Shown in pieces: positions 10,718 to 34,806 of a stretch of DNA of 64,000 nucleotides (the first letter of the stretch is position 1; each line of letters begins with the position of its first letter). Source of the DNA: Ferruginibacter sp. Lineage in GTDB: Bacteria; Bacteroidota; Bacteroidia; Chitinophagales; Chitinophagaceae. Where the stretch lies: assembly GCA_043736415.1 (NCBI GenBank), contig JAYTCO010000280.1, positions 557 through 64,556 of the forward strand. Direction: 5' to 3'. Position numbers and translations under genes: made by a program. The notes beneath the pieces are model-generated. The model was not told the DNA's origin. It did no database searches and saw only the letters and a list, made by a program, of their open reading frames with translations.

Positions 10718-10729
10718 GATATGAATCAT
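10718..10729. promoter_or_regulatory. FNR/FixK-like box TGATatgaATCA upstream of ccoN
   Basis: Perfect TGAT-N4-ATCA read directly. Its centre lies about 146 bp upstream of the ccoN ATG. Binding is inferred. Confidence 0.45.
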
Positions 10730-10869
10730 CACAATTCCTGATTGGCAACACAAAAGATTTATACCTATCATTTCATCTTTGCAGTTTAGTACTGTTGACA
10801 ACAGGCAACAAGTTTATATAATTTGTTTAGTTTTTTTAATGCAACTACGATTCTTTCAACCAAATAACA

Positions 10870-13035
10870 ATGATGTACAACCACGAGCGGTTTAAAAAAC
10901 GTTTACTTATTGCAGCACTTTCGCTGCTTTCCATTTCTAAAGCATCTGCGCAGGCCGCTGATAATATCATAAAAACAAACAGTAACTCTTTTGGATTATG
11001 GATTTTTGCAGGGCTTGTTATAATTCCTTTACTCTTTATAATTGGCAAATTATATTTAGATTTTAAACTTCAGTTAAAGAAAAATAATGAGTGGAACAAA
11101 GAAGGTACTACCCTTAAATTTTCTCAATACCTTAAAAATTTTGACAGAGCCCAAATACATACTTTTGTAACACTTAAAAAGAAAAAATGTTGCGGTAAAT
11201 GCAAGGGCGATGCTGGTTGTGGTGTCAGTAAAAAAGTTGTAGGCATAGTTGTGGTTTTGTTGTGTTTTGCAGACAATATTTTTGCGCAGGCAGCAAAAGA
11301 AAACAAAGCTTTAAGCTCACAACCCGGTATCATCATCACTATTGTGTTGATGCTGATTCCTATTTTACTGGCGGTAATATTTGCACTGGCAAAAGCAAAT
11401 AATGCCATAAGGAATTTTGCCAATAACAAAAAGAAAAAGGAAGCAGGTTCATTTGCTGAATATCTTCAAAACGTTGATGATGCTGCATTGCAGCAGGAAT
11501 TTATTAAAAAAGATAACCTTCCCGTTTATAATTTAACCCACAACGAGCTTTCAGGTAATGAAAAAGCCGAAGACAGTAAAGGGCTGTTAAGCAATATAAG
11601 TGATAAGCATGAAACACATTTTACAGCATCTAAAAGAAAAGCGGCAATTCGGCCAACATTAGATGCCGATATTACAAAACTGATTTTGTGGTATTTGGGT
11701 TGTGCAACATTTTGGCTTGTACTGGGTACAGGCATTGGCGAATACCTCGGAATAAAATTTGTAGCGCCCGATACAGATCACGTCAGCTGGTTAAGCTTCG
11801 GTAGGCTAAGACCTGTGCATACCAATATTGTATTTTGGGGTTGGGCGTCTTTAGCAATGATTGGGCTTGGTTATTATGTAGTACCTACCGTAAGCAATGC
11901 AAAAATTTACAGCATCAAATTTGGTTACATAGCCCTTGCTTGTACAAATATTATGGTAGTTGCGGGGTCTATTGCTTTAATGAGTGGCATAAACAATGGG
12001 GGCGGAGAATTTAGAGAATACATCTGGCCCATTATGGCGTTTTTCGCTGTAGCGCTAATTCTAACATTTATTAATTTCTTTTTGACTGTTGCAAAACGAA
12101 CTACAAAAGAAATTTATATTTCCAATTGGTTTATACTTTCAGCTTTGCTGTTTACCATAATTGTTGCTTTAACTGCTTATTTACCTTTTTGGCAAAATGG
12201 TATTGGAGAAACAATTGTACAGGGATATTTTATGCACTCAGGTGTGGGCATGTGGTTTACATTGTATGTTGTAGGGTTATTATATTATTTTATTCCGCAG
12301 CAAATAAACAAACCAATTTATGCTTACAGTTTAGGCATACTTGCCTTTTGGACACAGATTATTTTCTATACAGTTATTGGTACGCATCACTTTGTTTTTA
12401 GCGCTATTCCATGGTGGCTGCAAACAGTTGCCATTATTGGAAGTGCAGGTATGATAATTCCTGTGGTAGCTGCTACAATTAATTTTACGATGACGTTTAA
12501 AGGCCATTGGAATAAAATTATAAACAGCTATACACTGCCCTTCTTTTTTGTAGCAGTCATTTATTATTTTTTGGTTTCGATGCAGGGAACGGTAGAGGCT
12601 TTTAAGTTTACAAATCTGCTTTGGCATTTTACAGATTTTACTGTAGCTCACGCCCACGCCGGCTTTTACGGCATTATAACTTTTGCATTGTGGGGTGGCA
12701 TTTATGCCATTGTGCCAAGGTTAACAGGTAAAGAACCTCCGCAGCATTTAGTAGGTGCACATTTCTGGATAGCATTTATAGGGCTTATTTTTTATGTTGT
12801 ACCACTTTCTATTGGTGCTACGCTTAGGGGATTAATGTGGATGGATGGGAAACCTTTTATAGACAGTGTTGTTGTAATGTTTCAGTATTGGGTGTGGCGG
12901 GCTATAGGCGGTAGCCTGATGTTTATATCGCATGTAATTTTTGCATACAATTTTTATAGAATGGTAACAAAAGAAATTGAACCGTTGGATGTAAAAAACG
13001 AAGCGTTTCAACAACTTGGATTACATCAAAAATAA
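10870..13035 (+). CDS. ccoN: cbb3-type (C-family) heme-copper oxidase subunit I with a ~260-aa N-terminal membrane extension
   Basis: The C-terminal ~460 aa have 12 TM-like segments. The helix-7 motif YTVIGTHHFVFSAIPWWLQ has a Tyr six residues before the HH pair, the C-family cross-link position. The N-terminal extension has an internal duplication. Confidence 0.8.
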   Translation: MMYNHERFKKRLLIAALSLLSISKASAQAADNIIKTNSNSFGLWIFAGLVIIPLLFIIGKLYLDFKLQLKKNNEWNKEGTTLKFSQYLKNFDRAQIHTFVTLKKKKCCGKCKGDAGCGVSKKVVGIVVVLLCFADNIFAQAAKENKALSSQPGIIITIVLMLIPILLAVIFALAKANNAIRNFANNKKKKEAGSFAEYLQNVDDAALQQEFIKKDNLPVYNLTHNELSGNEKAEDSKGLLSNISDKHETHFTASKRKAAIRPTLDADITKLILWYLGCATFWLVLGTGIGEYLGIKFVAPDTDHVSWLSFGRLRPVHTNIVFWGWASLAMIGLGYYVVPTVSNAKIYSIKFGYIALACTNIMVVAGSIALMSGINNGGGEFREYIWPIMAFFAVALILTFINFFLTVAKRTTKEIYISNWFILSALLFTIIVALTAYLPFWQNGIGETIVQGYFMHSGVGMWFTLYVVGLLYYFIPQQINKPIYAYSLGILAFWTQIIFYTVIGTHHFVFSAIPWWLQTVAIIGSAGMIIPVVAATINFTMTFKGHWNKIINSYTLPFFFVAVIYYFLVSMQGTVEAFKFTNLLWHFTDFTVAHAHAGFYGIITFALWGGIYAIVPRLTGKEPPQHLVGAHFWIAFIGLIFYVVPLSIGATLRGLMWMDGKPFIDSVVVMFQYWVWRAIGGSLMFISHVIFAYNFYRMVTKEIEPLDVKNEAFQQLGLHQK

Positions 13036-13077
13036 GCTGTTATAAAACTTATTTAACTTCTAAAAATATTATTACAG

Positions 13078-14085
13078 ATGAATGTTTTTAATGATCATAA
13101 AAAATTATACTCAATTGCAGGTTTGCTGTTTTTAGTGCTTACTTATGTTACAGTAATAATGCCTGCTTTGCAAAATCAAAATAACAATGCACCGCTGCCG
13201 GGCTCAGTGCCTTTGGCAGGTGATGCGCTGGCGGGCAAATCGGTTTATGTGGCGGAAGGCTGTGTAGGCTGCCATTCACAACAGGTAAGGAATATTGAAA
13301 TGGATAAGGTCTTTGGCTCAAGGCCGGGTATGGCTTCAGACTATGCAAATTTAAAACGAATGAATGTATGGCAAAATACATCTACCGTTATGGGTACAGA
13401 AAGAACAGGCCCGGATCTTACAAATATTGCAGAAAGACAATCCAGTAAAGACTGGCATTTGATGCATTTATTTAATCCCCGCTCAGTGGTGGCACAATCC
13501 ATTATGCCTTCTTATGAATGGCTTTTCGAAATAAAAGATTCTGCTGCAAAAAATGATATGGTCGTAAATGTTCCGGCTGCATTTTTAAACGGCAGAAAAG
13601 GCAAGGTTGTTGCAAAAAAAGAAGCGTTACAATTGCTGGCATATTTGCTTACGCTAAAACAAATACCATTGCCCGATGGAACTAAACCAATGGAATTTTT
13701 ATATAAAAAAGAGCAAAAAGAAGTAGCAGGAGGAGAAGTAAAAGCCGGCGTTAATGGACAAACATTATACACAACCAACTGTCAGAGTTGCCACCAGGCA
13801 AATGGTGAAGGGCTTAAAGGCGCTTTTCCTCCTTTAAAAGGAAGCCCGATCGTTAACGGAGATAACCTGGAATTGTATGTAGATATTATTATGAATGGTT
13901 ATGATGCAAGAGCAGAATATGGAGTAATGCCGGCAGTTGGAACAAATATGAATTTTACAGAAAATGATGTAGCAGCACTTATAAATTATGAAAGAACAAG
14001 TTGGGGAAACGCCGGTAAAAAAGTAACGCCTGAAGAAATAAAAAAGATAATGGATTTTGTTAAAATTAAAGCAGCTTCAAAATAA
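13078..14085 (+). CDS. ccoO: Dihaem cytochrome c subunit: CcoO-like domain fused to a second c-type cytochrome domain
   Basis: N-terminal TM segment. The first haem site CVGCHSQQVR with GTERTGPDL and HLFNPR are CcoO/FixO motifs. A second CQSCHQ haem site and MPAVG lie in the C-terminal domain. Confidence 0.75.
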   Translation: MNVFNDHKKLYSIAGLLFLVLTYVTVIMPALQNQNNNAPLPGSVPLAGDALAGKSVYVAEGCVGCHSQQVRNIEMDKVFGSRPGMASDYANLKRMNVWQNTSTVMGTERTGPDLTNIAERQSSKDWHLMHLFNPRSVVAQSIMPSYEWLFEIKDSAAKNDMVVNVPAAFLNGRKGKVVAKKEALQLLAYLLTLKQIPLPDGTKPMEFLYKKEQKEVAGGEVKAGVNGQTLYTTNCQSCHQANGEGLKGAFPPLKGSPIVNGDNLELYVDIIMNGYDARAEYGVMPAVGTNMNFTENDVAALINYERTSWGNAGKKVTPEEIKKIMDFVKIKAASK

Positions 14086-14092
14086 TTACAAT

Positions 14093-14157
14093 GTCAGGGT
14101 GAGCTTGTCGAACCCGTTGCTAAAAACAAAAAACGCCTTCGACAGGCTCAGGCTGAC
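14093..14157. repeat. REP-like imperfect inverted repeat (gtcagggtgagcttgtcgaa ... ttcgacaggctcaggctgac)
   Basis: 20-nt arms pair at 17/20 around a 25-nt spacer, directly after the ccoO stop. The sequence type (TCGACAGGCTCAG..GAC) resembles intergenic palindromic elements common in Sphingobacteriia/Chitinophagia genomes. It may also act as a terminator or attenuator. Confidence 0.65.
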
Positions 14158-14194
14158 ACCCAATCCTTTTAAAAAATATTTAAAAACTACAGGA

Positions 14195-14464
14195 ATGAAA
14201 AAAATAATTATGACCTTATTAATTTGTTGCGCAGCATTTTCTATTTATGCATGCCCGGTTTGCGAAAGAGCAAAAGCCAAAACAGCCTTTGGGAGTATAA
14301 GCCATGGGCCCGGACCGGGAACCACATGGGACTATATAGCCGTGTGGGTAAGCATTGCAGCAGTTTTACTTACACTGATTTTTACCATAAAATTTTTGGT
14401 TAAGCCAAATGAAAAAAACAGTGATCATATAAAAAACAGCATATTAAATTTTGAACAGTCATGA
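14195..14464 (+). CDS. Small membrane protein with CPVC motif (uncharacterised, oxidase-cluster associated)
   Basis: ATG at 14195 (MKKIIMTLLICCAAFSIYACPVCERAK) with a signal/TM segment and a second TM. The listed ORF start 14057 runs through the REP hairpin and is rejected. Confidence 0.5.
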   Translation: MKKIIMTLLICCAAFSIYACPVCERAKAKTAFGSISHGPGPGTTWDYIAVWVSIAAVLLTLIFTIKFLVKPNEKNSDHIKNSILNFEQS

Positions 14465-14868
14465 GTACGCAAAGCAGGGTTTTAATTTTTATTGATGATG
14501 AAAAAAAGCCTTACGGCGAATATTTAGCGCCAATTAATTTTGAACTTGATACCCGAAAATTAGTTGATGGCGATCATATTTTAAAAGTGGTCAGCAAAGA
14601 CCCTCTTGGCAAAGAGGGTATTAGAAAAATTCCGTTCGTAGTTCGTAACGGGCCATCGGTGGCTGTTGAAGGATTAAACGAAAATGATATTGTGGATGGT
14701 GTAATACCAATAATGATTAATGCTTACGGCAAGGGCGACCAAAAGATATTTTTGATTGAAGGAAGTGAAACGCCACGATCGATACCTGCATGGGTTTGGG
14801 CAATCGTAATTGGTTTTGTAGGCTGGGCAATTTATTATGCCGTCATTTCAATGAACACCAGTTTGTAA
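14461..14868 (+). CDS. Uncharacterised protein with C-terminal CcoP/FixP-N-like membrane anchor
   Basis: A 4-nt overlap with the previous gene suggests coupling. The C-terminal PRSIPAWVWAIVIGFVGWAIYYAV resembles the conserved N-terminal anchor segment of CcoP (..LP.WW....Y.T...A..Y). Confidence 0.5.
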   Translation: MSTQSRVLIFIDDEKKPYGEYLAPINFELDTRKLVDGDHILKVVSKDPLGKEGIRKIPFVVRNGPSVAVEGLNENDIVDGVIPIMINAYGKGDQKIFLIEGSETPRSIPAWVWAIVIGFVGWAIYYAVISMNTSL

Positions 14869-14884
14869 TTATAAAATAAAAATT

Positions 14885-15262
14885 ATGAAAGACAGTACAG
14901 CACATTTACATTTAATATGTGAAGAGTTCAAAAGAACATTACAGTTTTACAAATCTGAAATACCATTTTTTAAAAAAAGACAGGAAGAAATTTCAATAAA
15001 AAATACAGGAGAAGAAATTCGCAAACAGGTAGAACATTTTGAAAATATATTTATTACTATGAATGAAAACCTTGATGTGTTGATGCATGATGTAAACATT
15101 AAACAGGATGCTATATTGAAGGATGCAAAAGAAAAGCCTGATTTTATAAATTTAAAGGTAAATGAAACTGCAGATGATTTAAAAGCATTAATAGATTTTA
15201 CAACTAAAGAATTTGCCGAAACAAAAGAGCATTTTTATCGTTTTCTATCTGAACATTTATAA
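14885..15262 (+). CDS. Helical hypothetical protein (paralog-like to 15731..16120)
   Basis: 125 aa, predicted all-helical. It shares size, heptad-like pattern and C-terminal ending (F..FLSEHL vs FNKYLSENI) with the ORF at 15731. Confidence 0.45.
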   Translation: MKDSTAHLHLICEEFKRTLQFYKSEIPFFKKRQEEISIKNTGEEIRKQVEHFENIFITMNENLDVLMHDVNIKQDAILKDAKEKPDFINLKVNETADDLKALIDFTTKEFAETKEHFYRFLSEHL

Positions 15263-15271
15263 AGATATTTT

Positions 15272-15568
15272 ATGATTATAAAAGAAATTTTATCAGAGTT
15301 AGAAACAAAGGATCATCCTGTTGCAAAAGCATTATATAAAAAAGAAGGCTTTAAAGTTTTAGTGCTTGCATTTAAAAAAGAGATGATTTTAAAAGAACAT
15401 AAGGCACATGAACCAACCAAATTAGTTGTGTTAGATGGAAGGGTATTCTACAAAAGTGAAGCAGAGGAAATAATATTAGATAAATACGACGAATTTGACA
15501 TTCCGGTTAATGATTTACATGCTGTACATGCTTTAGAAGATTCCCTTTGTATGCTGCTGCAAGGGTAA
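15272..15568 (+). CDS. Small cupin-fold-like protein (uncharacterised)
   Basis: 98 aa with the pattern FKVLVLAFKKEMILKEHKAHEPTKLVVLDG.V.Y........L...D...IP....H.V.ALEDS, typical of minimal cupins. It starts 10 nt after the previous gene. Confidence 0.45.
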   Translation: MIIKEILSELETKDHPVAKALYKKEGFKVLVLAFKKEMILKEHKAHEPTKLVVLDGRVFYKSEAEEIILDKYDEFDIPVNDLHAVHALEDSLCMLLQG

Positions 15569-15642
15569 TAAAATTTATATTTGGTTTTTTATAAAAGGCT
15601 TACCTAAGAAAAGATTGATAGCTTTTTGCTAAAGATTTTTGT

Positions 15643-15654
15643 TGATTACAATCA
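15643..15654. promoter_or_regulatory. FNR/FixK-like box tTGATtacaATCAc
   Basis: Perfect TGAT-N4-ATCA. Its centre lies about 82 bp upstream of ATG 15731. Confidence 0.45.
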
Positions 15655-15730
15655 CCCACACTGCTAATATTAATCGTTGTTTAAAGTATTTCATAAAAAT
15701 AACTTTAAACATTACTATCAATTGTTTAAA

Positions 15731-16120
15731 ATGCAAATTGAGAAAATGACTGAGTTAAAATTAATGCAATTGCGGCACGAAATAAATACATGGAAACGCA
15801 TGCTTGGTTTTATGCAGGAAGAAAACGTGCATTTAAAAAACAGGTTATCTGATGTTCTTAAAGACAGGTTTAATAAAAACCTTTTGGATGAAGTAGAGTT
15901 TTTTCAAACCAACTTTATTAAAGAAGACGAAGTAATTGGATTATTAAAAAGTGAAGTGGCAGCAATAGAAAATATTATAAAATGGGACCTGATAACCCAT
16001 GAAAACAATTTACTGATCAAGAAGGGAATAGAAAATGTTAGAAATAATATTGATGCTGCTGAAAGAGATTTTACAAAAATAAGTATTGACTTTAATAAAT
16101 ATTTGTCTGAAAATATTTAG
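15731..16120 (+). CDS. Helical hypothetical protein (paralog-like to 14885..15262)
   Basis: Start set at ATG 15731 (MQIEKMTELK) rather than TTG 15677, because the FNR-like box falls inside the longer version. Confidence 0.45.
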   Translation: MQIEKMTELKLMQLRHEINTWKRMLGFMQEENVHLKNRLSDVLKDRFNKNLLDEVEFFQTNFIKEDEVIGLLKSEVAAIENIIKWDLITHENNLLIKKGIENVRNNIDAAERDFTKISIDFNKYLSENI

Positions 16121-16271
16121 CATGATAGCATAATATATTTAAATTGTTTAATTGCTGTTCATTTAGTTTTCTATCAATAATATTTATGTGCAATAGGGTA
16201 AGGTAGTTGTAAAGATTATTTTGAAGAAGCAGATTTTAAAAAATTCTATTATAAAATTTAAATAACCAATT

Positions 16272-16463
16272 ATGAAAAAGAATATGGGTAAAACAGACAG
16301 AACTTTAAGAGTAGTTTTAAGCATTATCATTGCAGTCATAGGCTATTACTACAAATCGTGGTGGGGGTTGCTTGCATTTATACCGCTTGCTACTTCTTAC
16401 ATAGGCTTTTGTCCATTATACAAAATAATCGGGATTAACAGTTGTAACAAAAATGAGTGCTAA
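16272..16463 (+). CDS. DUF2892 (YgaP-like) small membrane protein
   Basis: 63 aa. DRTLRVVLSIIIAVIGYY...LLAFIPLATSYIGFCPLYKIIGINSC is the typical DUF2892 two-TM pattern. Confidence 0.65.
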   Translation: MKKNMGKTDRTLRVVLSIIIAVIGYYYKSWWGLLAFIPLATSYIGFCPLYKIIGINSCNKNEC

Positions 16464-16464
16464 A

Positions 16465-17523
16465 TTAATTGAGTAAATGTGATAATTTTTCTTCGTTGAG
16501 AATGATGATATTCCCTTCCTTAATATCAACTAATTTTTCTGTTCTAAAATCGCTGAGCGTTCGTATTAGGGATTCGGTCGCAGTACCTGCAATGCTAGCG
16601 AGGCACTCTCGGCTTATTGCAATTTCAAAATTATCAACATTTTCCTTCCTGTATTTTTTTTGTAAAAGCATTAAAGCTTCTGCAACTTTTTTGCGGAGCG
16701 AATTATAGGCAAGTCCCAGCAACTGATCTTCTTTTTCAGAAATATTTTTTGCAAGCAATTGAATAAATTTCCTTGCTACCTGCACATTGTTGTTTAATAA
16801 TTCATCAAAATCTTCTTTAGGAATAATGGCAAGCGAAGTCTCTTCCATGGTCTCAGTTGTATCTCTGTAAACAGTTTCTTCCAGCATGGCAATATATCCA
16901 AAAAAATCGCCCTGGCTGTACAATTCGGTTACCAGTTCTTTACCGTCATTATTGGTTTTAAAGGCTTTTACTTTTCCGCTTACCACATAATATAATTTGT
17001 TGGGATGGTTTCCTTCAGCATAAATTATTTGTTTCTTTTTATATTTATTTATGTTTCTGTCTTCGGCCAAAGTGCTAAGCTCATTTTTACCAAACGATGC
17101 CTGCATCAGCGTATTAAGCCCTTCTATTGAAGGGTTAAGCTGTTGCCGCAGCAATTCATTTTTTTTTAATCGGCTGTTAACTGCATTTAATAATTCCGTA
17201 CCGTCAAATGGTTTTGTAATATAATCATCTGCACCAGATTCCATACCTTTTCTAAAATCGTTGCGCTCTGTTTTTGCAGTAAGAAAAATAAAGGGTGTAT
17301 TTTTTATTGTTTCATTTTTTTGTACCGCATGTAATACACCGTAACCATCAAGCACAGGCATCATAATATCGCAAATAATCAAATCCGGCATGTGCTGCAA
17401 TGCCATTTCCACACCAATTTTTCCATTGGCAGCAGTTATTACTTTGTAGTTTGACAGCTCTAATATTTCAGCAGTGTTTTCCCGTATGAGGTCATTGTCT
17501 TCAATCAGTAATATCTTTTTCAT
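16465..17523 (-). CDS. Hybrid response regulator: CheY-like receiver + cNMP-binding-like domain + CRP/FNR-type HTH
   Basis: The receiver has KILLIEDN, PDLIICDIMMP (phospho-Asp) and YITKPF. The beta-barrel has IIYAEGNHPNKLYYVVSGKVK....G.E. The C-terminal HTH ISRECLASIAGTATESLIRTLSDF has the E-x3-R recognition pair. Confidence 0.85.
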   Translation of the reverse strand: MKKILLIEDNDLIRENTAEILELSNYKVITAANGKIGVEMALQHMPDLIICDIMMPVLDGYGVLHAVQKNETIKNTPFIFLTAKTERNDFRKGMESGADDYITKPFDGTELLNAVNSRLKKNELLRQQLNPSIEGLNTLMQASFGKNELSTLAEDRNINKYKKKQIIYAEGNHPNKLYYVVSGKVKAFKTNNDGKELVTELYSQGDFFGYIAMLEETVYRDTTETMEETSLAIIPKEDFDELLNNNVQVARKFIQLLAKNISEKEDQLLGLAYNSLRKKVAEALMLLQKKYRKENVDNFEIAISRECLASIAGTATESLIRTLSDFRTEKLVDIKEGNIIILNEEKLSHLLN

Positions 17524-17528
17524 ACAGT

Positions 17529-18737
17529 TTATTTTGTGCTGAATGTTATTTTAAACTCCGTACCTTTTTCCAGTTCACTCAAGCATTCTACAGTACCATT
17601 CATAAGCTCTGCATATTTTGCTACTATGTGTAACCCCAGGCCTGTTCCCTGTATATTTCCGGCGTTTGCACCTCTAAAAAACCGCTCCATTAAATGTTTC
17701 TGATCATCTTTTGAAATACCCATACCTAAATCTTTTACAGACAGTATTAAATGCGCTGCTGTATGAATTGTATTTATTTCAATTGTACTTCCCTCCGGTG
17801 AAAACTTGCTTGCGTTGGAAATTAAGTTCATAATAATGTGCTTTACCAGCGATGTATCCATTTCAACATTTTCGTCCCCCGTATGAGTGTATTGTATCTG
17901 CTGGTTTTTTTGCAGATTATTTTTAATCTCTTCCATTACCGAAACAATATGTTCGTGAATATTAAATTCAGAAACCCTTACCGGTATTTTACCTTCTTCA
18001 ATTTTGCCAACACTTAAAAAATCATTTAAAATATCCGTAAGCATATTTACTGATGAAACTATTCGTTGCAAATGTTTTTCCCGCTTGGGCTGATGTTCTG
18101 TAGTAGTATATTTTTCAATTAAATAAGAGGAAGATAAAACAGTGCTGAGTGGTGTGCGAAATTCATGGGATGCCATTGATACAAAACGTGATTTTAATTC
18201 ACTCAATTCTTTTTCTTTTTCAAGCGATCTGGAAAGTTCTTCTTTAGATTTTTCAAGCTGGTGCATAGCATCTGTAAGTTCTTTTGTTCTTTGCTCAACA
18301 GTTGCTTCCAGATCATCATTTAATTTTATAATTTCTGCTTCTGCATTTTTTCTGGTAGACGTATCACTTATAAATGCAATTACATTTTTATCGCCATCTT
18401 TTTCATAATTACCTAAGCTCACTTCTACCTGAAATTCCCTACCGTCTTTTTTTACACCGAACAGATCCATACCATTACCCATAGACCGGCTTTTTGGATT
18501 GTGTGTATAATTTTCCCGGTGATCATTGTGTTTGTGGTGGTACCGTTGCGGTATTAATATCTCTATCGGTTTATCAATTATTTCTTCAATTTTATAACAA
18601 AAAAGATTAAGTGCAAATGGGTTTACAGATAGAATTATACCTTTGCTGTTTACTACCACAATACCCATGGAAGCATGGTTAAAAAGTGCTTCATAACGAT
18701 AAGACTGATTAAAATTATTTTGTTCAGTAGCGGGCAT
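17529..18737 (-). CDS. PAS-domain sensor histidine kinase (FixL-like PAS core)
   Basis: The PAS domain has ILIPQRYHHKHNDHRENY...GVKKDGREFQVEVSLG. H-box SHEFRTPL, N-box NLISNASKFSP and G-boxes DLGMGI / GTGLGL are present. It ends 5 nt before the regulator gene. Confidence 0.85.
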   Translation of the reverse strand: MPATEQNNFNQSYRYEALFNHASMGIVVVNSKGIILSVNPFALNLFCYKIEEIIDKPIEILIPQRYHHKHNDHRENYTHNPKSRSMGNGMDLFGVKKDGREFQVEVSLGNYEKDGDKNVIAFISDTSTRKNAEAEIIKLNDDLEATVEQRTKELTDAMHQLEKSKEELSRSLEKEKELSELKSRFVSMASHEFRTPLSTVLSSSYLIEKYTTTEHQPKREKHLQRIVSSVNMLTDILNDFLSVGKIEEGKIPVRVSEFNIHEHIVSVMEEIKNNLQKNQQIQYTHTGDENVEMDTSLVKHIIMNLISNASKFSPEGSTIEINTIHTAAHLILSVKDLGMGISKDDQKHLMERFFRGANAGNIQGTGLGLHIVAKYAELMNGTVECLSELEKGTEFKITFSTK

Positions 18738-18843: not shown

Positions 18844-19011
18844 CTATTTTGTGTCTTCAATTTCTATATCAGTTTCACCATGTCTAATGGTCGGAGAATC
18901 ATTTTCTAATTGTCTTTCAAAATTTTTTCTATCTCTATTATTACGGATAATGGTAAACACAATTAATGCAACTACTGCCACACTCACCATAAATATTAAT
19001 AAAATTTTCAT
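18844..19011 (-). CDS. Possible 55-aa single-TM protein
   Basis: My own translation gives MKILLIFMVSVAVVALIVFTIIRNNRDRKNFERQLENDSPTIRHGETDIEIEDTK. It is below the ORF-track cutoff, lies between trxA and the kinase gene, and has no homology support. Confidence 0.3.
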   Translation of the reverse strand: MKILLIFMVSVAVVALIVFTIIRNNRDRKNFERQLENDSPTIRHGETDIEIEDTK

Positions 19012-19048
19012 AGTTTATAATTTGTCTTAAAAGTTTTAGTTATCAAAA

Positions 19049-26622: not shown

Positions 26623-26633
26623 ACTAATGTTTA

Positions 26634-27467: not shown

Positions 27468-27539
27468 GAAATAATTTTTTATTTATTTTTTCAATTTTAA
27501 AATATAATGTATTAGTGAATAAAAGATTTTAAGCAGTAT

Positions 27540-28475
27540 TTAATTTGTCGCTTTATTCATTAGACCATATATTTTTTCTACATCTTTTAAATTGCACAAT
27601 TCTGTACCTGTATTCATAGTGGCTGCTGTGCCACATGCAACTCCGTATTTTACTGCCTCGGCAATGTTTTTTTGTTTTGACAAAAAATAAACAATACCCG
27701 CCAACATGCTGTCACCTGCACCAACAGTGCTCTTTCTAATTACAGCAGGTGGTTCAATTGTTTTTATTAAATCATTGGTTACAAACAAAGCTCCTTGTGC
27801 ACCCATAGATATTACCACTACCTCGCATTTACCTTCTGCAATAATTTCTTTAGCAGCGGCTTCTATTTCATGTTGTTTCAAATGTGTTTTACCCGAAAGA
27901 AAACACAGTTCACCAAGATTTGGTTTAAGCAGGTAAACGCCTTCATTTACAGCTTCCCTTAAAGCTTCACCGGATGTATCTACAACAAATTTTGCATTTT
28001 TATTCTTTGCAATTTTTGCCAGCTGAGCAAAAATATTTAAAGGTACCCCGGGCGGTAAACTTCCGCTTGCTACAATAAAAGAAATATCCTGAATTTCTTC
28101 AACTGCTTTTAGGCATTGCATCCATTCTACATCACTAAGGTTTGTGCCCGGCATACCAAAACGGTATTGTGCATTTTCAGCTTCATCAAGCACTATTATA
28201 TTTTCTCTTGTTTCATTTTGTACTTCAATAATTACTGCATGTATATTTTCAACTTCCAGTAAATGATTAAAATATTTTCCCGTATATCCGCCTGACGGAA
28301 AAATAGCTGTAGCATCTCCACCCAATTTCTTTATTGCTCTTGCTACATTAATTCCACCACCACCCGGCTCAAGTTTTGGCGCAGCACAATGCAGCTTTTT
28401 ATCAGGCAGTAATTTTTTTACTGATGTGGTTTTATCAATACATGGGCTGAATGTAACGGTAACGATGGTTGACAT
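27540..28475 (-). CDS. pfkB: PfkB-family sugar kinase, 6-phosphofructokinase II type
   Basis: FEPGGGGINVARAIKKLGGDATAIFPSGG and the C-terminal GAGDSMLAG closely match E. coli PfkB (Pfk-2) motifs. Confidence 0.75.
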   Translation of the reverse strand: MSTIVTVTFSPCIDKTTSVKKLLPDKKLHCAAPKLEPGGGGINVARAIKKLGGDATAIFPSGGYTGKYFNHLLEVENIHAVIIEVQNETRENIIVLDEAENAQYRFGMPGTNLSDVEWMQCLKAVEEIQDISFIVASGSLPPGVPLNIFAQLAKIAKNKNAKFVVDTSGEALREAVNEGVYLLKPNLGELCFLSGKTHLKQHEIEAAAKEIIAEGKCEVVVISMGAQGALFVTNDLIKTIEPPAVIRKSTVGAGDSMLAGIVYFLSKQKNIAEAVKYGVACGTAATMNTGTELCNLKDVEKIYGLMNKATN

Positions 28476-28483
28476 AATATTGT

Positions 28484-29515
28484 TTAGCTGTTTCCATTTC
28501 CGGATATTTCTTCTTCTACCAAAATATTTGTAAGCTCATTTTTACAAGTGTTGTTTTTTTGGAAGCAATCAATATTTTCAAAAGTAGTATCCGCAATATT
28601 TGTAAGTGCCTGCACCGTAGCAAAAGCCTGGTGCGGAGTTATCAAGACATTCGGCATAGAAAGTAATTTTTTCAACAAATCGTCCTTCATTTCTTTCCCT
28701 GTAAGGTCAGAGAAGAAAATACCTCTTTCATTTTCATAAACATCTGCTCCGTAATAGGCAATATTACCATTTTGTAATCCCTCAATTACATCTACCGTAT
28801 TTACGCATGCCCCACGCCCCGTATTGATGAGCATTGTACCCGGTTTCATTAAATCTATCAGCTTTTTATTAATTAAATATTTTGTTTCGGGTGTAGATGA
28901 AGTATGAATGCTAATGATATCTGCTGAGGCACAAAGCGTTTCCTTATCCAAATATTCAACACCAAATTTTTCTTTCAATTGATCATTTTCGTTTGGGTCA
29001 CAACACAAAATTTTGCAGCCAAAGCCATACATAATTTTTACCAGTACACTGCCAATAATACCCACGCCAATAATGCCTATGGTTTTACCATGCAGATCGT
29101 AACCAATTAAATTATCTGTAGTAAAATTTTGTTGGTGAACCTGCTTTTCTGCAATAATGGTTTTTCTGTTTAGCGCCTGTATGAGCGCTATTACATGTTC
29201 TGCAATAGCATAAGGTGAATATGCAGGCACATTTGTAACTTTAATACCTACAGCGTTTGCTTTTTCAATATCAATATTGTCATGCCCTGCCGCTCTTGTT
29301 GTAATGCATTTCACATCAATTTCATAAAGTAATTTTATCACCTCTGCACTTGCATCATCGCCGGTAAAAATGCTGATGATCTCAAAACCGGTAGCAAGAT
29401 GAGCAGTTTCCAAACACAACGGCTTTTTTAAAAATGTAATTTCATAATTATTTGTGTTTGCCTTTTCCAGGTAAGGTTGCTCGTATGGTTTTGTACTGAA
29501 GAAGAGTGTTTTCAT
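28484..29515 (-). CDS. ldhA: D-lactate dehydrogenase / D-isomer-specific 2-hydroxyacid dehydrogenase
   Basis: The N-terminal pattern FFSTKPYEQPYL...NVPAYSPYAIAEH parallels E. coli LdhA. An NAD-binding GIIGVGIIG motif is present. Confidence 0.75.
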   Translation of the reverse strand: MKTLFFSTKPYEQPYLEKANTNNYEITFLKKPLCLETAHLATGFEIISIFTGDDASAEVIKLLYEIDVKCITTRAAGHDNIDIEKANAVGIKVTNVPAYSPYAIAEHVIALIQALNRKTIIAEKQVHQQNFTTDNLIGYDLHGKTIGIIGVGIIGSVLVKIMYGFGCKILCCDPNENDQLKEKFGVEYLDKETLCASADIISIHTSSTPETKYLINKKLIDLMKPGTMLINTGRGACVNTVDVIEGLQNGNIAYYGADVYENERGIFFSDLTGKEMKDDLLKKLLSMPNVLITPHQAFATVQALTNIADTTFENIDCFQKNNTCKNELTNILVEEEISGNGNS

Positions 29516-29522
29516 AAATACA

Positions 29523-29561
29523 TTTTACATATTTTATTTGAAGATATTTTAATATGTAAAA
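29523..29561. promoter_or_regulatory. 11-bp perfect inverted repeat ttttacatatt-N17-aatatgtaaaa just upstream of ldhA
   Basis: Read directly. It lies 8-46 bp upstream of the ldhA start and about 63 bp after the USP stop, so it could be an attenuator, terminator or operator. Confidence 0.3.
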
Positions 29562-29623
29562 ATAAACACCCCAATTTTTAGACCGAAAACTTTTTACACA
29601 TCCTAAACTATACAAGACACTTA

Positions 29624-30439
29624 TTATCTTAATAAAAGCACAGGTACATGGCTGTGTAAAACCATTTGCTTGGTATGACTTCTGCTGATAATTTTTTCCC
29701 ACAGGGTGTGATGCTTTCGCATAACAATTAATAAATCAATATTATTTTTTTCTGCAAAATCGACTACACTTTTATCAATGTGTTCGCCCTCAACAAAATG
29801 GAATTCTACTTTGTGTGTTTCAAACATCTTATTAATTTTATTTGAAAATAAAATAAAATCTTCGTTAAACTCCTCTTCTTTTGCTGCATTTATAACATGA
29901 ATATTTGAATTAAAATCGTTTGCCAGCAATTTAATTTCAGCAATAAAATCTTCATCAATTTCATTTTTAAAATCATAAGCAATTCCAATGTTTTTAAAAG
30001 CTGAAAAACTTGCATTATACGGAACTGTTATAAGCGGCCATGTGCAGTTTTTTAATGCGTCGGCTGTATGTCCGCCAAACATAATTCGTTCAGCTGCTGT
30101 TTTACCCTGGCTACCCATTATTAAAAAGTATGGTTTTACGCTGTCACAAATTTCATTTAACTCATTTGCAAAAACACCCAACTTTACCTGCGTTAAAATA
30201 TTAAGTTTAGTAGCTGTACTTTTTAAAAGTTCATTTTTAAAAGTTTCTATATCATTTTCAGCAATAGCTTTTAAATCAACAATATTCATAACAATAATTG
30301 GATCTTCAAAGTTTGGCATTAATTGATATACATTAAAAAGTAAAACATCTGCATTTATGATCTGCGCCATTTTTAAGGCATACATTGATGCGTTTAACGC
30401 ATTTGAAGAAAAATCTGTTGCTACAATAATTGTTTTCAT
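29624..30439 (-). CDS. Tandem-domain universal stress protein (paralog of 33901..34719)
   Basis: 271 aa. MKTIIVATDFS..ALNA..YA.K.A and the C-terminal HTKQ.VLH.HVPV are shared with the 33901 gene. Confidence 0.8.
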   Translation of the reverse strand: MKTIIVATDFSSNALNASMYALKMAQIINADVLLFNVYQLMPNFEDPIIVMNIVDLKAIAENDIETFKNELLKSTATKLNILTQVKLGVFANELNEICDSVKPYFLIMGSQGKTAAERIMFGGHTADALKNCTWPLITVPYNASFSAFKNIGIAYDFKNEIDEDFIAEIKLLANDFNSNIHVINAAKEEEFNEDFILFSNKINKMFETHKVEFHFVEGEHIDKSVVDFAEKNNIDLLIVMRKHHTLWEKIISRSHTKQMVLHSHVPVLLLR

Positions 30440-30497
30440 TTACTTACTTTATTTAGTGAAGGTTTGAATACTGATTTTTTACCATCAGTCATTTCAG

Positions 30498-31220
30498 TTA
30501 TTTATAAATTTTTCTTTTCAATTGTATCATTTTCAATTTTAAGGTATCATATATCAAGCCGATAAATAATACCAAGGTTGCGAGGATTAAAACTTTCAAT
30601 TGTAATTTTTGATATAACAGGCCAGCTGAAATGCCTCCAATAAAAAAGAAAATAATAATTGTTAACCGCAATTTTATGGAGGCATATAATTTTATTCTTT
30701 GAAGTGCTTTTTTATAAAAGAAAAGTTGAGATAACTCGATGCCTAAATCTGTAAAAAGGCCTGTTAAATGCGTAGTACGTACTGTAGCATCAGATATTTT
30801 AGTGACCAAAGAATTTTGTAACCCCATTGCAAACAATAAAATACAAACAATAAAATTGGCATAGCTTTCAATTAAGTTTTTTCCTAAGCTGGCAACAAAC
30901 AAAAGCAACACTATTTCAATAACAATTGGAAGAATATAAGTTTTATTTTCATTTTTTAAAGCAACGTATTCCACCAGTAAACTTGAGATAAAAGCACCTA
31001 AAAAGAAAAATAAAATATATAAAAAGTAAACCAATCCTTTCCAAAAATGCACCTGAAACACCTCATCTACAAAATAAGCAAAATGCCCCGTAACATTTGT
31101 GGTAAGCTGTTTCACAGCTAAAAATCCGGCAACGTTTACTATTCCTGCTACAAAAGAAAGTAATGATGCAATTTGTAAATTGTGTTTTACCGTTCTTGTT
31201 TTTCCTTGATGCCTAAACAT
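30498..31220 (-). CDS. DUF1275 (YoaK) family membrane protein
   Basis: 240 aa, 6 TM, with VTGHF and TTHLTG motifs typical of YoaK/DUF1275. Confidence 0.65.
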   Translation of the reverse strand: MFRHQGKTRTVKHNLQIASLLSFVAGIVNVAGFLAVKQLTTNVTGHFAYFVDEVFQVHFWKGLVYFLYILFFFLGAFISSLLVEYVALKNENKTYILPIVIEIVLLLFVASLGKNLIESYANFIVCILLFAMGLQNSLVTKISDATVRTTHLTGLFTDLGIELSQLFFYKKALQRIKLYASIKLRLTIIIFFFIGGISAGLLYQKLQLKVLILATLVLFIGLIYDTLKLKMIQLKRKIYK

Positions 31221-31524
31221 CTTTTTGTATTTTATTTACCATAATTATAAAAGGTTTTAATAAAAAAATGAATTGTTTTAATACTGGTATTGTATTGTTT
31301 AGATCCATATTCATTTAATTAAACATTTTGTCATTTTCATTATTAATAATAAAATTTTTATAAAAAGAATTTTAAGCTTTTTGCAGTAAAACAACAAACA
31401 TTGATAGCATAAAAAAATTTGCAAGAAAGTTTGCAGTAAGTTGCCTCTACACATATTATTTTAGTGAATCCCTTATATAAAATAATAAGAAATTAAAGAT
31501 AGAATTCCGGTATACCCAAACCCC

Positions 31525-32616
31525 TTAACCTTCTTTCACGTTGTACTCAATACTTTTCAACGTAAATTTTCCGTAAACAAATTCACCCTCAGGATAATGC
31601 CAAACTGTTTCTCCATACTGCATAATATTGCGCCCATCAATTTGAGCATAATTTTTTACAGGAGTAGAAAAACCATATTCCTTCATTTCGTTAACAGCAT
31701 ATCTGTCATCAGAAATAAAATTTATCAGTTGCCCCTGCTCATTAAAATATAGAATTGCGTTTATTTTATTTACGCCATTTGTAAAAGTCGCCTTGGCAGA
31801 TAAACTATCAATCGCTGTCCATAGAATTCTTTTGTCAATTAACGAAGCGGGTGCCATAAGGCACATATCGTTAAATACTGTTACAGTTTCGGCTTTATTT
31901 AATTCCGTACCTTTTATGCTTACTACATTAAATAAGCCCAACGGTTTTATTTGCATGGTTGCCCTTTCATTTTGGTAACAGTGATAACCCGGTACAGGAA
32001 CACCATAAATCTTTGCTTTCATAAAAAACAATCTGGTTGGGTCATCAAAAAAATTATACTGTACAGAAGTAAATTTGAAAAAATCCTTTCCCTTTTCCCT
32101 CATTTCGCCGTCAAAAATAATTCTCATATTTTTTACTTTCGGTTTATTAACTGCTCCTGAATAACGAATATATTTTTGAACCGGAAATGGCAGAGAAACA
32201 ATATCTGCATCTATCAATAAATCATTGGTTACAAAATTTGTTTCGGCCATATGGTTATCAATATCTTTCTTAAAGTTCATTTCAAAGTGAAAGGTTGCCC
32301 AAGAAGAAATGGTAACAACAAGAATAATAATATTTAAAACAGTTCCAAATTTTGCATCATGCCAAACCGAAATAATTAGTACCTGAGATATTACAACTGC
32401 AGCAAAGGCAACATATACCCAACCTTCTTTTTTCAATAAACATAGTATAGCTGCTGTTACAAAAAGAAGAGCTGTAAGCAGCCAAAAAATGCCATTTGGT
32501 TTAGAAATATCTTTTGTTAGCTGAGGAATATTTGCATAATTAAATGCTTTTGCAAAACCCATTGTATGGAGTAGTCCATGAGCAAACAAAATGATGGGTA
32601 GAAGGTATTTAAGCAT
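31525..32616 (-). CDS. Membrane-anchored uncharacterised protein (4 N-terminal TM + ~250-aa soluble domain)
   Basis: 363 aa. The start overlaps the Acg-like gene stop by 8 nt, suggesting translational coupling. I cannot assign a family with confidence. Confidence 0.5.
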   Translation of the reverse strand: MLKYLLPIILFAHGLLHTMGFAKAFNYANIPQLTKDISKPNGIFWLLTALLFVTAAILCLLKKEGWVYVAFAAVVISQVLIISVWHDAKFGTVLNIIILVVTISSWATFHFEMNFKKDIDNHMAETNFVTNDLLIDADIVSLPFPVQKYIRYSGAVNKPKVKNMRIIFDGEMREKGKDFFKFTSVQYNFFDDPTRLFFMKAKIYGVPVPGYHCYQNERATMQIKPLGLFNVVSIKGTELNKAETVTVFNDMCLMAPASLIDKRILWTAIDSLSAKATFTNGVNKINAILYFNEQGQLINFISDDRYAVNEMKEYGFSTPVKNYAQIDGRNIMQYGETVWHYPEGEFVYGKFTLKSIEYNVKEG

Positions 32617-33736
32617 AATTCTTTTTTACAAATGACTCTATCGAACGCCTTAATGACACAGGATTTGGGTAATTTTTTAAATACCCTGTTCGTAAAATAA
32701 ACTGCACAGGATCGTTAATCCCCATAGAGGTATTTAAAATTTGATTTGTTTTTGCTTCTTCAATTATCTGCGTCATTGGGTGAATGGCAATATTTCTCCC
32801 TCTTACTTTTAACCATAGCCTTTGCAATCTTTTACCGGTTTCTAATAATGTTTCTAACGAATTATCTTTGCTTGTTATAAGTAACCATCCTGCTGATGCA
32901 TTCGAAACTTCCTTCACCACTTTATCAATACTTTGCTCCCTAAAACTTTTTTTCATCACATCGCTTTTGCCATAAAAATTTCGCAAATACCAGCCAGGTA
33001 TACCTTCTATTTCCATACCTGCAAGTGTGAGCCCGTCTAAATATTTGGCTGCATCTTTATCGGAGAATCTTATCCAATCTGCTAATTCGCTTTGTGCTGC
33101 ATCTCTGTACGATTGAATCCTGTTGGCTTCAATGGTTTGTTCATTTAGCCATACATGTTCTTTTGAGCTATTAGGAATGTAATGAATGAAATCATTTTCA
33201 TCGTTAAGTAAATATGAAATGTCTTCTCTTTTAAGTATATCGCTTAAATAATTTGAACGAACAGTGCGACGTTGCTTTATTTGTTCAATATCATATTTGA
33301 TAATCCTTGTTGCTTTAGTAAGTTTTAGGTCAACTACATTTTCATTTTGATTATTTGTGGCTAAAATATTATACTGATAATTGTAACCAAAGCTTTTTGC
33401 AGCGTATTCTAAATTTTGTAAAAAAGCTCCGATAGATAAAATGGTTTCTCGTTGTGTAGGGTCAACACCGGGTAACCAGCGGCTTTTATCATTGCAAATA
33501 ATCCAATGGTATGGCTCCAAATATTTTACAAACCATGGTTGTGTGTTGTGCCCGCTTGGCGCAAGGGAAGCAAGTGCCAATATATCTCTTTCATGCGGCT
33601 TAAAAGGAAATTCAATTGTAAAATCTTGTTTTATATCTGCTCTTACCAAATTATTTTTATCGCTAAAGCCATAGTAAGTTGCGCCGCCAATAACGATAGC
33701 AGATCCTGTAAAAGCTAAAAATTTTCGCCTCGTCAT
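32609..33736 (-). CDS. Acg-type (tandem) nitroreductase-family FMN protein with twin-arginine signal
   Basis: Start set at MTRRKFLAFTGSAIVIGGATYYG, a Tat-like RRxFL motif. APSGHNTQPW is a nitroreductase motif, and the ~375-aa size fits Acg-family proteins. The longer listed start (33868) would add an AT-rich low-complexity leader that covers the promoter box. Confidence 0.7.
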   Translation of the reverse strand: MTRRKFLAFTGSAIVIGGATYYGFSDKNNLVRADIKQDFTIEFPFKPHERDILALASLAPSGHNTQPWFVKYLEPYHWIICNDKSRWLPGVDPTQRETILSIGAFLQNLEYAAKSFGYNYQYNILATNNQNENVVDLKLTKATRIIKYDIEQIKQRRTVRSNYLSDILKREDISYLLNDENDFIHYIPNSSKEHVWLNEQTIEANRIQSYRDAAQSELADWIRFSDKDAAKYLDGLTLAGMEIEGIPGWYLRNFYGKSDVMKKSFREQSIDKVVKEVSNASAGWLLITSKDNSLETLLETGKRLQRLWLKVRGRNIAIHPMTQIIEEAKTNQILNTSMGINDPVQFILRTGYLKNYPNPVSLRRSIESFVKKNYA

Positions 33737-33807
33737 AATATTTCTAAAATTTATTAATGGAATTATTAATAAAGTATAAAAATATTCAAACAGATTGTTT
33801 ATTAAAA

Positions 33808-33819
33808 TGATCAAAATCA
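33808..33819. promoter_or_regulatory. FNR/FixK-like box aTGATcaaaATCAg upstream of the Acg-like gene
   Basis: Perfect TGAT-N4-ATCA. Its centre lies about 78 bp upstream of ATG 33736. Confidence 0.45.
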
Positions 33820-33900
33820 GTAAGCAGTATGACAGCTGTCTACCTACTTTAAAAAAGTAAACAAACAAGTTATTATCCTTGCACTTCTAAAGTGACGCAG

Positions 33901-34719
33901 TTATTTAGTTAATGACATTACAGGAACATGGCAATGAAGTACCAGTTGTTTGGTGTGACTTTTATGAAATAGTCTTTGAAACATATTGTAATGTTTAGGC
34001 ATTACAATTAGCAGGTCTACATTGTTGGATTCCACAAACTTTAAAATAGCTTCTTCAGTTTGATGTGAAGTTAAAAAATGATATTTTATTATAAAAGGAG
34101 TAAAGGCATTTTCAAGCTCGCTCGCTAATAATGTAAAATGCTCATTAAATTCCTCTTCCTGTACTGCATTTAAAATATCGATAGAGGCATTAAAATCCCC
34201 GGCAATTAATTTTATATCGGCAATTAAATTTTCTTTTATTACTTCCTCAAAATCGTATGCAATACCTATTTTTTTAATGGCTGAAAAAGTAAACGTAGAT
34301 GGTACTGTAATTATCGGCCATGCAAAATGATTAATGGTTTTACCTGCATGAGAGCCCATTAAAAAATGTTCAGCAGCGGTTTTACCCTGGCTGCCCATTA
34401 TTACTGCATAGGGATTTAATCGTTCGCATATTAAAATCAACTCATCATTAAAAACGCCTAATCTTACTTCGGTCGTAATATTAAAACTAAAATTGGATTG
34501 CTGAACAAGATCAGATTTAAAATGTAATAACTGTGTTTCAGCAGATTTTTTTAAATCATCTACATTAATATCAATTATAATTTCTCCGTAATTAGGCAGA
34601 ACCTCAAAAACGTTAAAAAGTAAAATATCAGCACCTACAGTTTCAGCTATTTTTACAGCATATTTGGCAGCATTTAAAGCAATAGGCGAAAAGTCGGTTG
34701 CCACTATAATGGTTTTCAT
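33901..34719 (-). CDS. Tandem-domain universal stress protein
   Basis: 272 aa, a clear paralog of 29624..30439. Confidence 0.8.
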   Translation of the reverse strand: MKTIIVATDFSPIALNAAKYAVKIAETVGADILLFNVFEVLPNYGEIIIDINVDDLKKSAETQLLHFKSDLVQQSNFSFNITTEVRLGVFNDELILICERLNPYAVIMGSQGKTAAEHFLMGSHAGKTINHFAWPIITVPSTFTFSAIKKIGIAYDFEEVIKENLIADIKLIAGDFNASIDILNAVQEEEFNEHFTLLASELENAFTPFIIKYHFLTSHQTEEAILKFVESNNVDLLIVMPKHYNMFQRLFHKSHTKQLVLHCHVPVMSLTK

Positions 34720-34794
34720 CTTTTCAATATTTAAAATTTAAAATTGAGCTTTTGACAGGAAATAAAATTACTCATAATAACCGGCTTTAAAAGC

Positions 34795-34806
34795 TGATAA
34801 TAATCA
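34795..34806. promoter_or_regulatory. FNR/FixK-like box cTGATaataATCAa upstream of the USP gene
   Basis: Perfect TGAT-N4-ATCA. Its centre lies about 82 bp upstream of ATG 34719. Confidence 0.45.

Follow-up and report, generated by a model that had tools for sequence, protein, structure and literature searches.

Tandem TGAY-N4-RTCA palindromes in a Ferruginibacter oxidase/stress gene cluster, candidate operators of a REC-CRP response regulator

Oxygen-responsive gene regulation is well understood in Proteobacteria, through FNR, FixLJ-FixK and Anr/Dnr, and in Actinobacteria, through DosRST; to our knowledge it has hardly been described for the aerobic Bacteroidota of soil and freshwater. In the FixL-FixJ-FixK cascade of rhizobia and Caulobacter, a heme-PAS kinase and the REC-LuxR regulator FixJ are followed by a second tier, FixK, a CRP/FNR-type DNA-binding protein without an Fe-S cluster, and TGA-N6-TCA palindromes stand in front of the cbb3-type oxidase operon. 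The class II promoters of Escherichia coli FNR carry TTGAT-N4-ATCAA at -41.5. In CRP/FNR recognition, a Glu and an Arg of the helix read the TGA core, and Ser212 of FNR reads the outer T; cbb3 oxidase and hemN genes are classical targets of FNR, FixK and Anr. Here we describe palindromes of the related form TGAY-N4-RTCA in a stretch of Ferruginibacter DNA (64 kb, called the window in its whole length), where they precede oxidase and stress genes that lie around the genes for a PAS histidine kinase and a response regulator with a CRP-type output (REC-CRP).

The gene map of the window, whose GC content is ~34%, was built from the list of open reading frames (ORFs) and Pfam; the closest relatives of the locus are metagenome-assembled genomes of Ferruginibacter. 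Between 10 and 35 kb lie a PNPOx-like gene, a divergent cbb3-type oxidase operon, a gene for a small helical protein, the PAS histidine kinase and REC-CRP regulator genes, and further genes for a thioredoxin, two P-type ATPases, three universal stress proteins (USPs), PfkB, a 2-hydroxyacid dehydrogenase, a DeoC aldolase and an Acg-family nitroreductase. We consider it reasonably probable that the palindromes of this island are conserved CRP/FNR-family activator sites for low-oxygen and stress genes, and that the protein that binds them is, most probably, the REC-CRP regulator.

An earlier note on this DNA had reported four perfect TGAT-N4-ATCA palindromes, all in promoter regions of the island. 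Our pattern search confirmed four intergenic copies, at 10717-10728, 15643-15654, 33808-33819 and 34795-34806 (the first thus starting at 10717 and not at 10718, as had been given), and found, in agreement with the note, no intergenic copy outside 10.7-35 kb on the gene map of the window. Shuffling predicts 1.37 perfect matches to TGATNNNNATCA in the window; there are six, a number that no shuffle out of 100 attained. The other two copies are coding:

4394-4405, no strand assigned: perfect TGAT-N4-ATCA within the acetate kinase gene, without a partner or -7 element among the top matches of the composite scan described below
14565-14576, no strand assigned: perfect TGAT-N4-ATCA within the ORF 14461-14868, of unknown function (pattern and composite scan)

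We do not take these two for functional sites, since chance alone predicts as many and both lack a tandem partner and a -7 element; they are probably chance matches. For the intergenic DNA of the window (6863 bp) the expectation is 0.12 by Markov resampling and 0.30 from composition, which bears out the previous estimate of well below one match, and at least four matches arose in 0 of 5000 simulations. An origin of the whole set as chance matches in AT-rich intergenic DNA, or as remnants of repeat elements, would be in keeping with the shortness of the boxes, which have eight specified bases each, and with the two further perfect copies in coding DNA. The simulations argue against it, and a search for RNA elements gave no Rfam match in the window.

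For comparison, we used 80 Chitinophagaceae loci (1.31 Mb, 14.5% of it intergenic) around regulator orthologs that are 59-81% identical. An unbiased scan of all 256 palindromes composed of a 4-mer, N4 and its reverse complement returned two clear outliers, TGAT-N4-ATCA, with 85 of 132 copies intergenic, and TGAC-N4-GTCA, with 32 of 40. As TGAY-N4-RTCA, the sites number 236 in intergenic and 105 in coding DNA, a 13-fold difference in density, and at least one intergenic box occurs in 69 of the 80 loci. Equal frequency in intergenic and coding DNA, which the earlier note had named as an outcome that would count against functional sites, is thus not what these loci show. In the 236 sites, the base before TGA is A (50%) or C (26%), less often T (15%) or G (9%), and the family consensus is (A/C)TGAY-N4-RTCA(T/G); in the four boxes of the window at 10717, 15643, 33808 and 34795 this base is c, t, a and c. 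Because A or C, and rarely T or G, precedes TGA, the consensus is neither the FNR/FixK box with its TTGAT nor the CRP box with its GTGA. The TTGAT-N4-ATCAA consensus proposed previously does not hold, its outer T being disfavoured; the outer TT/AA of the FixK box is likewise not conserved, and the 9% of sites with G set the family apart from CRP sites (TGTGA-N6-TCACA).

The boxes come in pairs. A position profile around 153 oriented sites contains a second TGA...TCA signal at +/-22 bp, and among intergenic pairs with perfect cores 64 are spaced by exactly 22 bp, three by 21 and one by 23, where random placement gave 0.66 expected pairs at 22 bp and a maximum of five. Partner positions selected by geometry alone are T-G-A/T-C-A in 69-90%. 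In view of this excess and of the composition of the geometry-picked partners, tandem pairing is the rule for these boxes.

Upstream conservation, also named beforehand as a check, is found at several orthologs. A box lies within 300 nt upstream of 24 of 25 ccoN orthologs, 16 of the 25 having a 22-bp pair with perfect cores, and the window itself has the pair 10717/10739 at this position, in support of the earlier assignment of the cbb3 operon as a target. In the closest relative (L002) the region upstream of ccoN has diverged, yet the pair TGATAAACATCA-N10-TGATGGCCATCA is kept at the same place. Within the same distance, boxes precede 27 of 57 members of the family of the gene at 15731, whose orthologs share a layout in which the distal box is perfect and the proximal one half degenerate (TGACGAATATCA-N10-TGATGGAAATAC is an example), 7 of 11 PNPOx orthologs, at distances that include 52.5-57.5 bp, and 24 of 73 kinase operons. 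The box set consists of transcription-factor sites and not of chance matches: the palindrome scan, the intergenic enrichment, the simulations, the retention of boxes upstream of orthologs while flanks diverge and the exact 22-bp pairing together refute a chance or repeat origin, to which we give a vanishingly small probability.

A composite model made up of distal box, proximal box and -7 element was then run along both strands of the whole window. Five promoters, all of them intergenic and correctly oriented, rank highest; the correctly oriented matches that follow next are coding. The genes and operons behind these promoters are:

10230-10679, + strand: PNPOx-like (Pyridox_ox_2) protein gene (Pfam)
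10870-15568, + strand: divergent cbb3-type oxidase operon, beginning with a ccoN-like gene (Pfam, NCBIfam)
15731-16120, + strand: gene for a 129-aa protein, an antiparallel three-helix bundle (predicted structure, neighbourhood)
31525-33733, - strand: operon for an Acg-family flavin mononucleotide (FMN) oxidoreductase and a DUF6544 protein (Pfam, NCBIfam)
33901-34719, - strand: gene for a tandem-domain USP (Pfam)

The elements of the five promoters are as follows, positions in brackets being relative to the predicted start; the four perfect boxes are those first noticed, in the order of their coordinates:

10150-10161, + strand: PNPOx-like distal box (about -63.5), TGATACAAATAA, one core mismatch, 22 bp upstream of 10172 (composite scan)
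10172-10183, + strand: PNPOx-like proximal box (about -41.5), TGATTGTCGTCA, a TGAY-N4-RTCA match, its centre 52.5 bp from the ATG at 10230
10207-10214, + strand: PNPOx-like predicted sigma-A -7 element, TAATTTTA, starting 29.5 bp after the proximal centre
10717-10728, + strand: ccoN-like distal box (about -63.5), TGATATGAATCA, perfect, first box (pattern and composite scan)
10739-10750, + strand: ccoN-like proximal box (about -41.5), TGATTGGCAACA, one core mismatch, 22 bp from 10717
10774-10781, + strand: ccoN-like predicted -7 element, CATCTTTG, 29.5 bp after the proximal centre, with a predicted leader of ~80 nt
15643-15654, + strand: 15731 distal box (about -63.5), TGATTACAATCA, perfect, second box (pattern and composite scan)
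15665-15676, + strand: 15731 degenerate proximal box, TAATATTAATCG, two core mismatches (composite scan)
15700-15707, + strand: 15731 predicted -7 element, TAACTTTA, starting 51.5 bp after the distal centre
33830-33841, - strand: Acg-nitroreductase distal box, AGACAGCTGTCA, one core mismatch (composite scan)
33808-33819, - strand: Acg-nitroreductase proximal box (about -41.5), TGATTTTGATCA, perfect, third box (pattern and composite scan)
33777-33784, - strand: Acg predicted -7 element, TATTTTTA (position relative to the boxes)
34795-34806, - strand: USP proximal box (about -42.5), TGATTATTATCA, perfect, fourth box (pattern and composite scan)
34763-34770, - strand: USP predicted -7 element, TAATTTTA, starting 30.5 bp after the box centre

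At the USP promoter the distal position, 34817-34828, is weakly box-like. The promoters are thus five and not the four counted before, the PNPOx-like gene having the pair 10150/10172; its site at 10172, described as having one mismatch, is a full match to TGAY-N4-RTCA and belongs to the set.

In the related loci, the start of the Bacteroidota -7 element TAnnTTTG falls 29.5 bp after the centre of the proximal box and 51.5 bp after that of the distal one at oriented sites. Flavobacterial sigma-A promoters have this element at -12 to -5 (PMC9723704), which would place the boxes at about -41.5 (proximal) and -63.5 (distal) relative to the predicted start. The position profile of oriented sites has no G enrichment at the place expected for a -33 TTG, and a scan of the window for sigma-70 promoters and terminators is uninformative for a Bacteroidota genome. 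The class II position suggested at first is therefore supported for one box per promoter, which would lie near -41.5 relative to the start predicted from the -7 element, while the second box near -63.5 had gone unnoticed. Measured from box centre to start codon, the distances are 147.5 bp at the ccoN-like gene, 82.5 bp at 15731, 80.5 bp at the nitroreductase (ATG 33733) and 81.5 bp at the USP gene (ATG 34719), which match the figures of 78-82 bp and about 146 bp given before. Their apparent consistency does not have a common meaning and is partly coincidental, because the box at 15643 is distal and those at 33808 and 34795 are proximal; the corresponding leaders are predicted to be ~19 nt at 15731 and ~40 nt at the Acg and USP genes.

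The same geometry bears on the direction of control. Several CRP/FNR members repress from such positions, and the proximal box covers -47 to -36, overlapping upstream contacts of the polymerase, so that the REC-CRP regulator, or a paralog, might act as a repressor that occludes the -33 region and is released under the inducing condition. We regard this as improbable: the promoters do not have a -33 TTG, as is typical of activator-dependent promoters, and the fixed -41.5 register with a 22-bp tandem on the same face is class II activation geometry, whereas a repressor needs no exact register. The two genes that we consider the likeliest regulatory pair for activation through these boxes are:

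16465-17523, - strand: candidate cognate regulator, a hybrid response regulator with REC, cyclic-nucleotide (cNMP)-binding-like and HTH_Crp_2 domains (Pfam)
17529-18737, - strand: candidate cognate sensor, a cytoplasmic PAS-HisKA-HATPase kinase (Pfam), its gene 5 bp upstream of the regulator gene

The regulator has the features of a two-component response regulator. Its receiver domain (Pfam Response_reg, 5.9e-28) has the acidic pocket, the phospho-acceptor Asp52, Thr82 and Lys104, the motif DLIICDIMMP is conserved in its orthologs, and the kinase gene is directly adjacent. The recognition helix, GTATESLIRTL, is nearly invariant as GTA(T/K)ES(L/V)IRTL in ~70 orthologs. The Glu and Arg responsible for contacts with the TGA core are retained, with Ser212 of FNR replaced by Ile (TESLIR) and Thr at the position of CRP Arg180; by comparison with the E. 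coli CRP sequence, the position of CRP Glu72 is Tyr. A helix that has neither FNR Ser212 nor CRP Arg180 fits a box with no outer T and no preceding G. The best solved relative of residues 154-346 is the stand-alone Crp/Fnr-family regulator of PDB 2gau (E 8e-23), which has no receiver domain and to which its depositors assign no function, so that it carries no information on DNA specificity. Among NCBIfam models the best match is Caulobacter FixK, at 82.9 bits against the cut-off of 300 for the FixK equivalog NF050806, and the FixK, CRP and FNR family models are all far below threshold. The two Cys residues of the protein are not in a cluster. The FNR/FixK-type label first given to the boxes is for these reasons too narrow, the only CRP-family protein of the window having a receiver domain and no Cys cluster. 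The REC-cNMP-HTH_Crp architecture recurs in >8000 database clusters, all with generic automatic names only, and neither REC-CRP regulators nor the present regulon were found described for Bacteroidota in the literature covered, subscription journals lying outside it.

The PAS domain of the kinase has the heme domains of FixL (5e-12) and DosP as its best solved relatives, FixL being the most similar, with the proximal His aligned and conserved in most of 68 orthologs. The system shares with FixLJ-FixK, in addition to this likeness of the sensor domain, a CRP/FNR-type protein without an Fe-S cluster and TGA-N6-TCA palindromes in front of a cbb3-type oxidase operon. It differs in that there is no FixJ tier, since the receiver is fused to the CRP-type module and two tiers become one (the Pfam gene map has no LuxR-type regulator in the island), and in that its boxes form 22-bp tandems in the context of the Bacteroidota -7 promoter. 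With E. coli FNR it has in common the TGAT-N4-ATCA core, one site predicted at about -41.5 and targets of a respiratory or anaerobic type, such as a high-affinity oxidase and a HemN-like protein. Unlike FNR, the candidate regulator has no Cys cluster and has Ile for Ser212, its presumed boxes do not conserve the outer T, most promoters need a second box at -63.5, and sensing would be delegated to the kinase.

Alternatively, the boxes may be genuine CRP/FNR-type operators of a stand-alone Fe-S FNR-like or FixK-like paralog encoded outside the window, with the REC-CRP regulator reading something else or acting upstream, as FixJ acts upstream of FixK. The core of the boxes is identical to that of FNR, the classical nature of cbb3 oxidase and hemN as FNR/FixK/Anr targets counts for such a paralog, the regulon reaches 16-18 kb from the regulator gene, and the CRP part of the regulator scores below every curated family threshold, so that its specificity is not fixed by family. 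The outer T that FNR and FixK require is, however, disfavoured. The window encodes neither an Fe-S FNR nor a stand-alone FixK, the regulator gene being its only CRP-family gene in 64 kb, and another CRP-like protein is encoded in only 2 of the 80 related loci. Boxes are densest at the promoters flanking the regulator gene, namely those of the kinase, the 15731 family and ccoN, kinase operons carry boxes in the proportion given above, and the recognition helix is invariant across the lineages in which the motif is invariant. On these grounds, namely the density peak, the boxes of the kinase operons, the lack of another consistent CRP-like gene nearby and the near-invariant helix, we favour the REC-CRP protein, which the earlier note had also put forward as a candidate, and consider the paralog unlikely, though well worth keeping in mind.

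Several observations weigh against assigning the boxes to the REC-CRP regulator as sites of oxygen-responsive activation. All 80 comparison loci were picked for containing the regulator, so that co-localisation is partly built in, and Chitinophagaceae genomes usually carry many CRP/FNR paralogs. The two helix variants, T in 59 loci and K in 10, do not co-vary with box composition. In the window, the composite scan found no box upstream of the kinase/regulator operon, a point that also speaks for the paralog, and none that is recognisable in the 19-31 kb part of the island; the original attribution of the boxes to the oxidase/stress island thus holds for five promoters and not for most of the island. 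Orthologs of the kinase do not conserve, in their PAS domain, the distal Arg known from FixL, so that heme binding and oxygen specificity are candidate properties only, and the -41.5/-63.5 positions depend on predicted -7 elements. Finally, a box within 250 nt precedes only 8 of 34 metagenomic Acg orthologs, in four of the eight cases as a 22-bp pair. The Acg box is therefore lineage-labile and, as this weaker conservation indicates, regulon membership is mosaic.

In gene content there is a striking likeness to a further known system. As in the DosS/DosT-DosR dormancy regulon of Mycobacterium tuberculosis, the genes include an Acg nitroreductase, several USPs, Hsp20/alpha-crystallin, P-type ATPases, PfkB and baeRF-like proteins, clustered with a response regulator and a sensor kinase of the heme type (predicted here). 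The output of the window regulator is, by contrast, of the CRP and not of the NarL/LuxR type (the gene map of the window has no DosR-like regulator of the latter type), its sensor has PAS instead of GAF, and the DosR-type box GGGAC-N4-GTCCC is absent from the window, with two matches at two mismatches against 4.0 expected. As the phylum is a different one, the likeness to DosR would be convergent or result from transfer of the gene set. Among the related loci, Hsp20 is the commonest additional box target (17 cases), and USP-like, DUF892, BON, DUF2267 and baeRF-like proteins, a HemN-like radical SAM enzyme, cytochrome c and nitroreductases recur. The target content, with its cbb3-type oxidase, HemN-like protein, Hsp20, USPs, Acg and other nitroreductases and cytochrome c, fits hypoxia.

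Some of the window targets have features of their own. The Acg protein passes NCBIfam NF047509 (231 bits, cut-off 199). In the oxidase operon, a ccoN-like gene is followed by a fusion of FixO and cytochrome c and by four small ORFs without a family; the ccoN-like protein is extended by 270 aa at its N-terminus, where DUF4153 matches only weakly, and scores 261, well below the NCBIfam ccoN cut-off of 583. The operon at 10870-15568 may encode a distinct C-family oxidase variant. The 15731 protein has no Pfam or NCBIfam family; its fold is a confidently predicted antiparallel three-helix bundle (predicted local distance difference test, pLDDT, 88), for which Foldseek returned no informative neighbour (best E-value 0.06). 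A gene of this type adjoins the kinase/regulator pair in 59 of the 80 loci and is a box target as well, and one may speculate that its product is a feedback modulator of the system.

Other observations concern the surroundings of these genes. Many of the Acg orthologs without a box (L085-L092, L104-L106) have another conserved upstream motif, roughly GTGAAT-NN-TG(T/C)AAG, which points to a different regulator there. From 31.2 to 19.0 kb no regulator site can be recognised at the island genes, and inspection by eye and by pattern gave no convincing second shared motif in the box-less promoters of 18.7-31.5 kb; the 304-bp intergenic region at 31221-31524, upstream of a DUF1275 gene and without a box, has three copies of (c/t)T(T)GCAAA within ~60 bp. 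Two ORFs for small membrane proteins of <80 aa lie near the regulatory genes, one of 63 aa at 16273-16464 (+ strand), between the 15731 gene and the regulator gene, and one of ~55 aa at about 18846-19010 (- strand), downstream of the thioredoxin gene. An acetate kinase and phosphoketolase (XFP) gene pair is found at 4017-7645, just upstream of the island, and in a related locus (L109, 2529-4940) the Acg ortholog has an XFP gene a short way upstream, with one unannotated ORF between them, which hints that the phosphoketolase pathway travels with the stress gene set. Elsewhere in the window, a 608-bp stretch (53536-54143) without an ORF of at least 80 aa has TGA-N6-TCA matches at 53654 and 53688, 34 bp apart, which are not of the Y/R type and not among the top composite matches. 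A bacteriorhodopsin-family gene (61535-62287, - strand; Pfam Bac_rhodopsin 2.8e-45) adjoins a gene for a Blh-type beta-carotene 15,15'-dioxygenase (62511-63485, + strand), predicted to form a module of light-driven pump and retinal synthesis.

In the mechanism that we propose, the adjacent cytoplasmic kinase would phosphorylate the N-terminal receiver domain of the REC-CRP regulator, and the CRP-type part of the regulator would dimerise and read the TGA...TCA core. Phosphorylation would be driven by low oxygen, or by a related signal such as another gas or the redox state, given the resemblance of the kinase PAS domain to FixL and DosP, which sense oxygen through heme. Two dimers would bind cooperatively, side by side on the 22-bp tandem, and RNA polymerase would be brought in from the site at -41.5 by class II-type activation, which would switch on the five window promoters, those of the PNPOx-like gene, the cbb3-type oxidase operon, the three-helix protein gene, the Acg nitroreductase operon and the USP gene. 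The statistics, the conservation, the tandem geometry, the placement relative to -7 elements and the domain content are direct results; the binding protein, the signal, activation as opposed to repression, and cooperativity we infer. As a whole, the earlier reading of the boxes as sites of a CRP/FNR-family activator at a class II position is retained, with its consensus, tandem architecture, promoter number and strict family assignment corrected.

By analogy, it is as if a FixLJ-FixK cascade had been condensed to a single two-component pair and put in charge of a DosR-like regulon. For the wider family, we judge the chances to be about even that the very widespread REC-cNMP-HTH_Crp class of Chitinophagaceae and other Bacteroidota couples a FixL-like heme-PAS kinase directly to phosphorylation-driven binding of two dimers to tandem boxes at -63.5 and -41.5, with a hypoxia/dormancy regulon convergent in gene content with that of DosR. 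The proposal is directly testable because cultured relatives carry the system; orthologs occur in Pseudoflavitalea rhizosphaerae KACC 18655, Pollutibacter soli JS81, Niastella sp. OAS944, Chitinophaga filiformis ZLX-1 and Flavipsychrobacter stenotrophus RB1R16, among others. If it is correct, it would provide a defined operator, (A/C)TGAY-N4-RTCA in 22-bp tandems, with a defined geometry on the unusual Bacteroidota -7 promoter, and a candidate pair of sensor and regulator with a regulon that could be predicted in hundreds of genomes. It would also represent a new mode of control for a CRP/FNR-type protein, in which a fused receiver domain takes the role of a ligand or an Fe-S cluster, and a convergent assembly of a 'dormancy' gene set.

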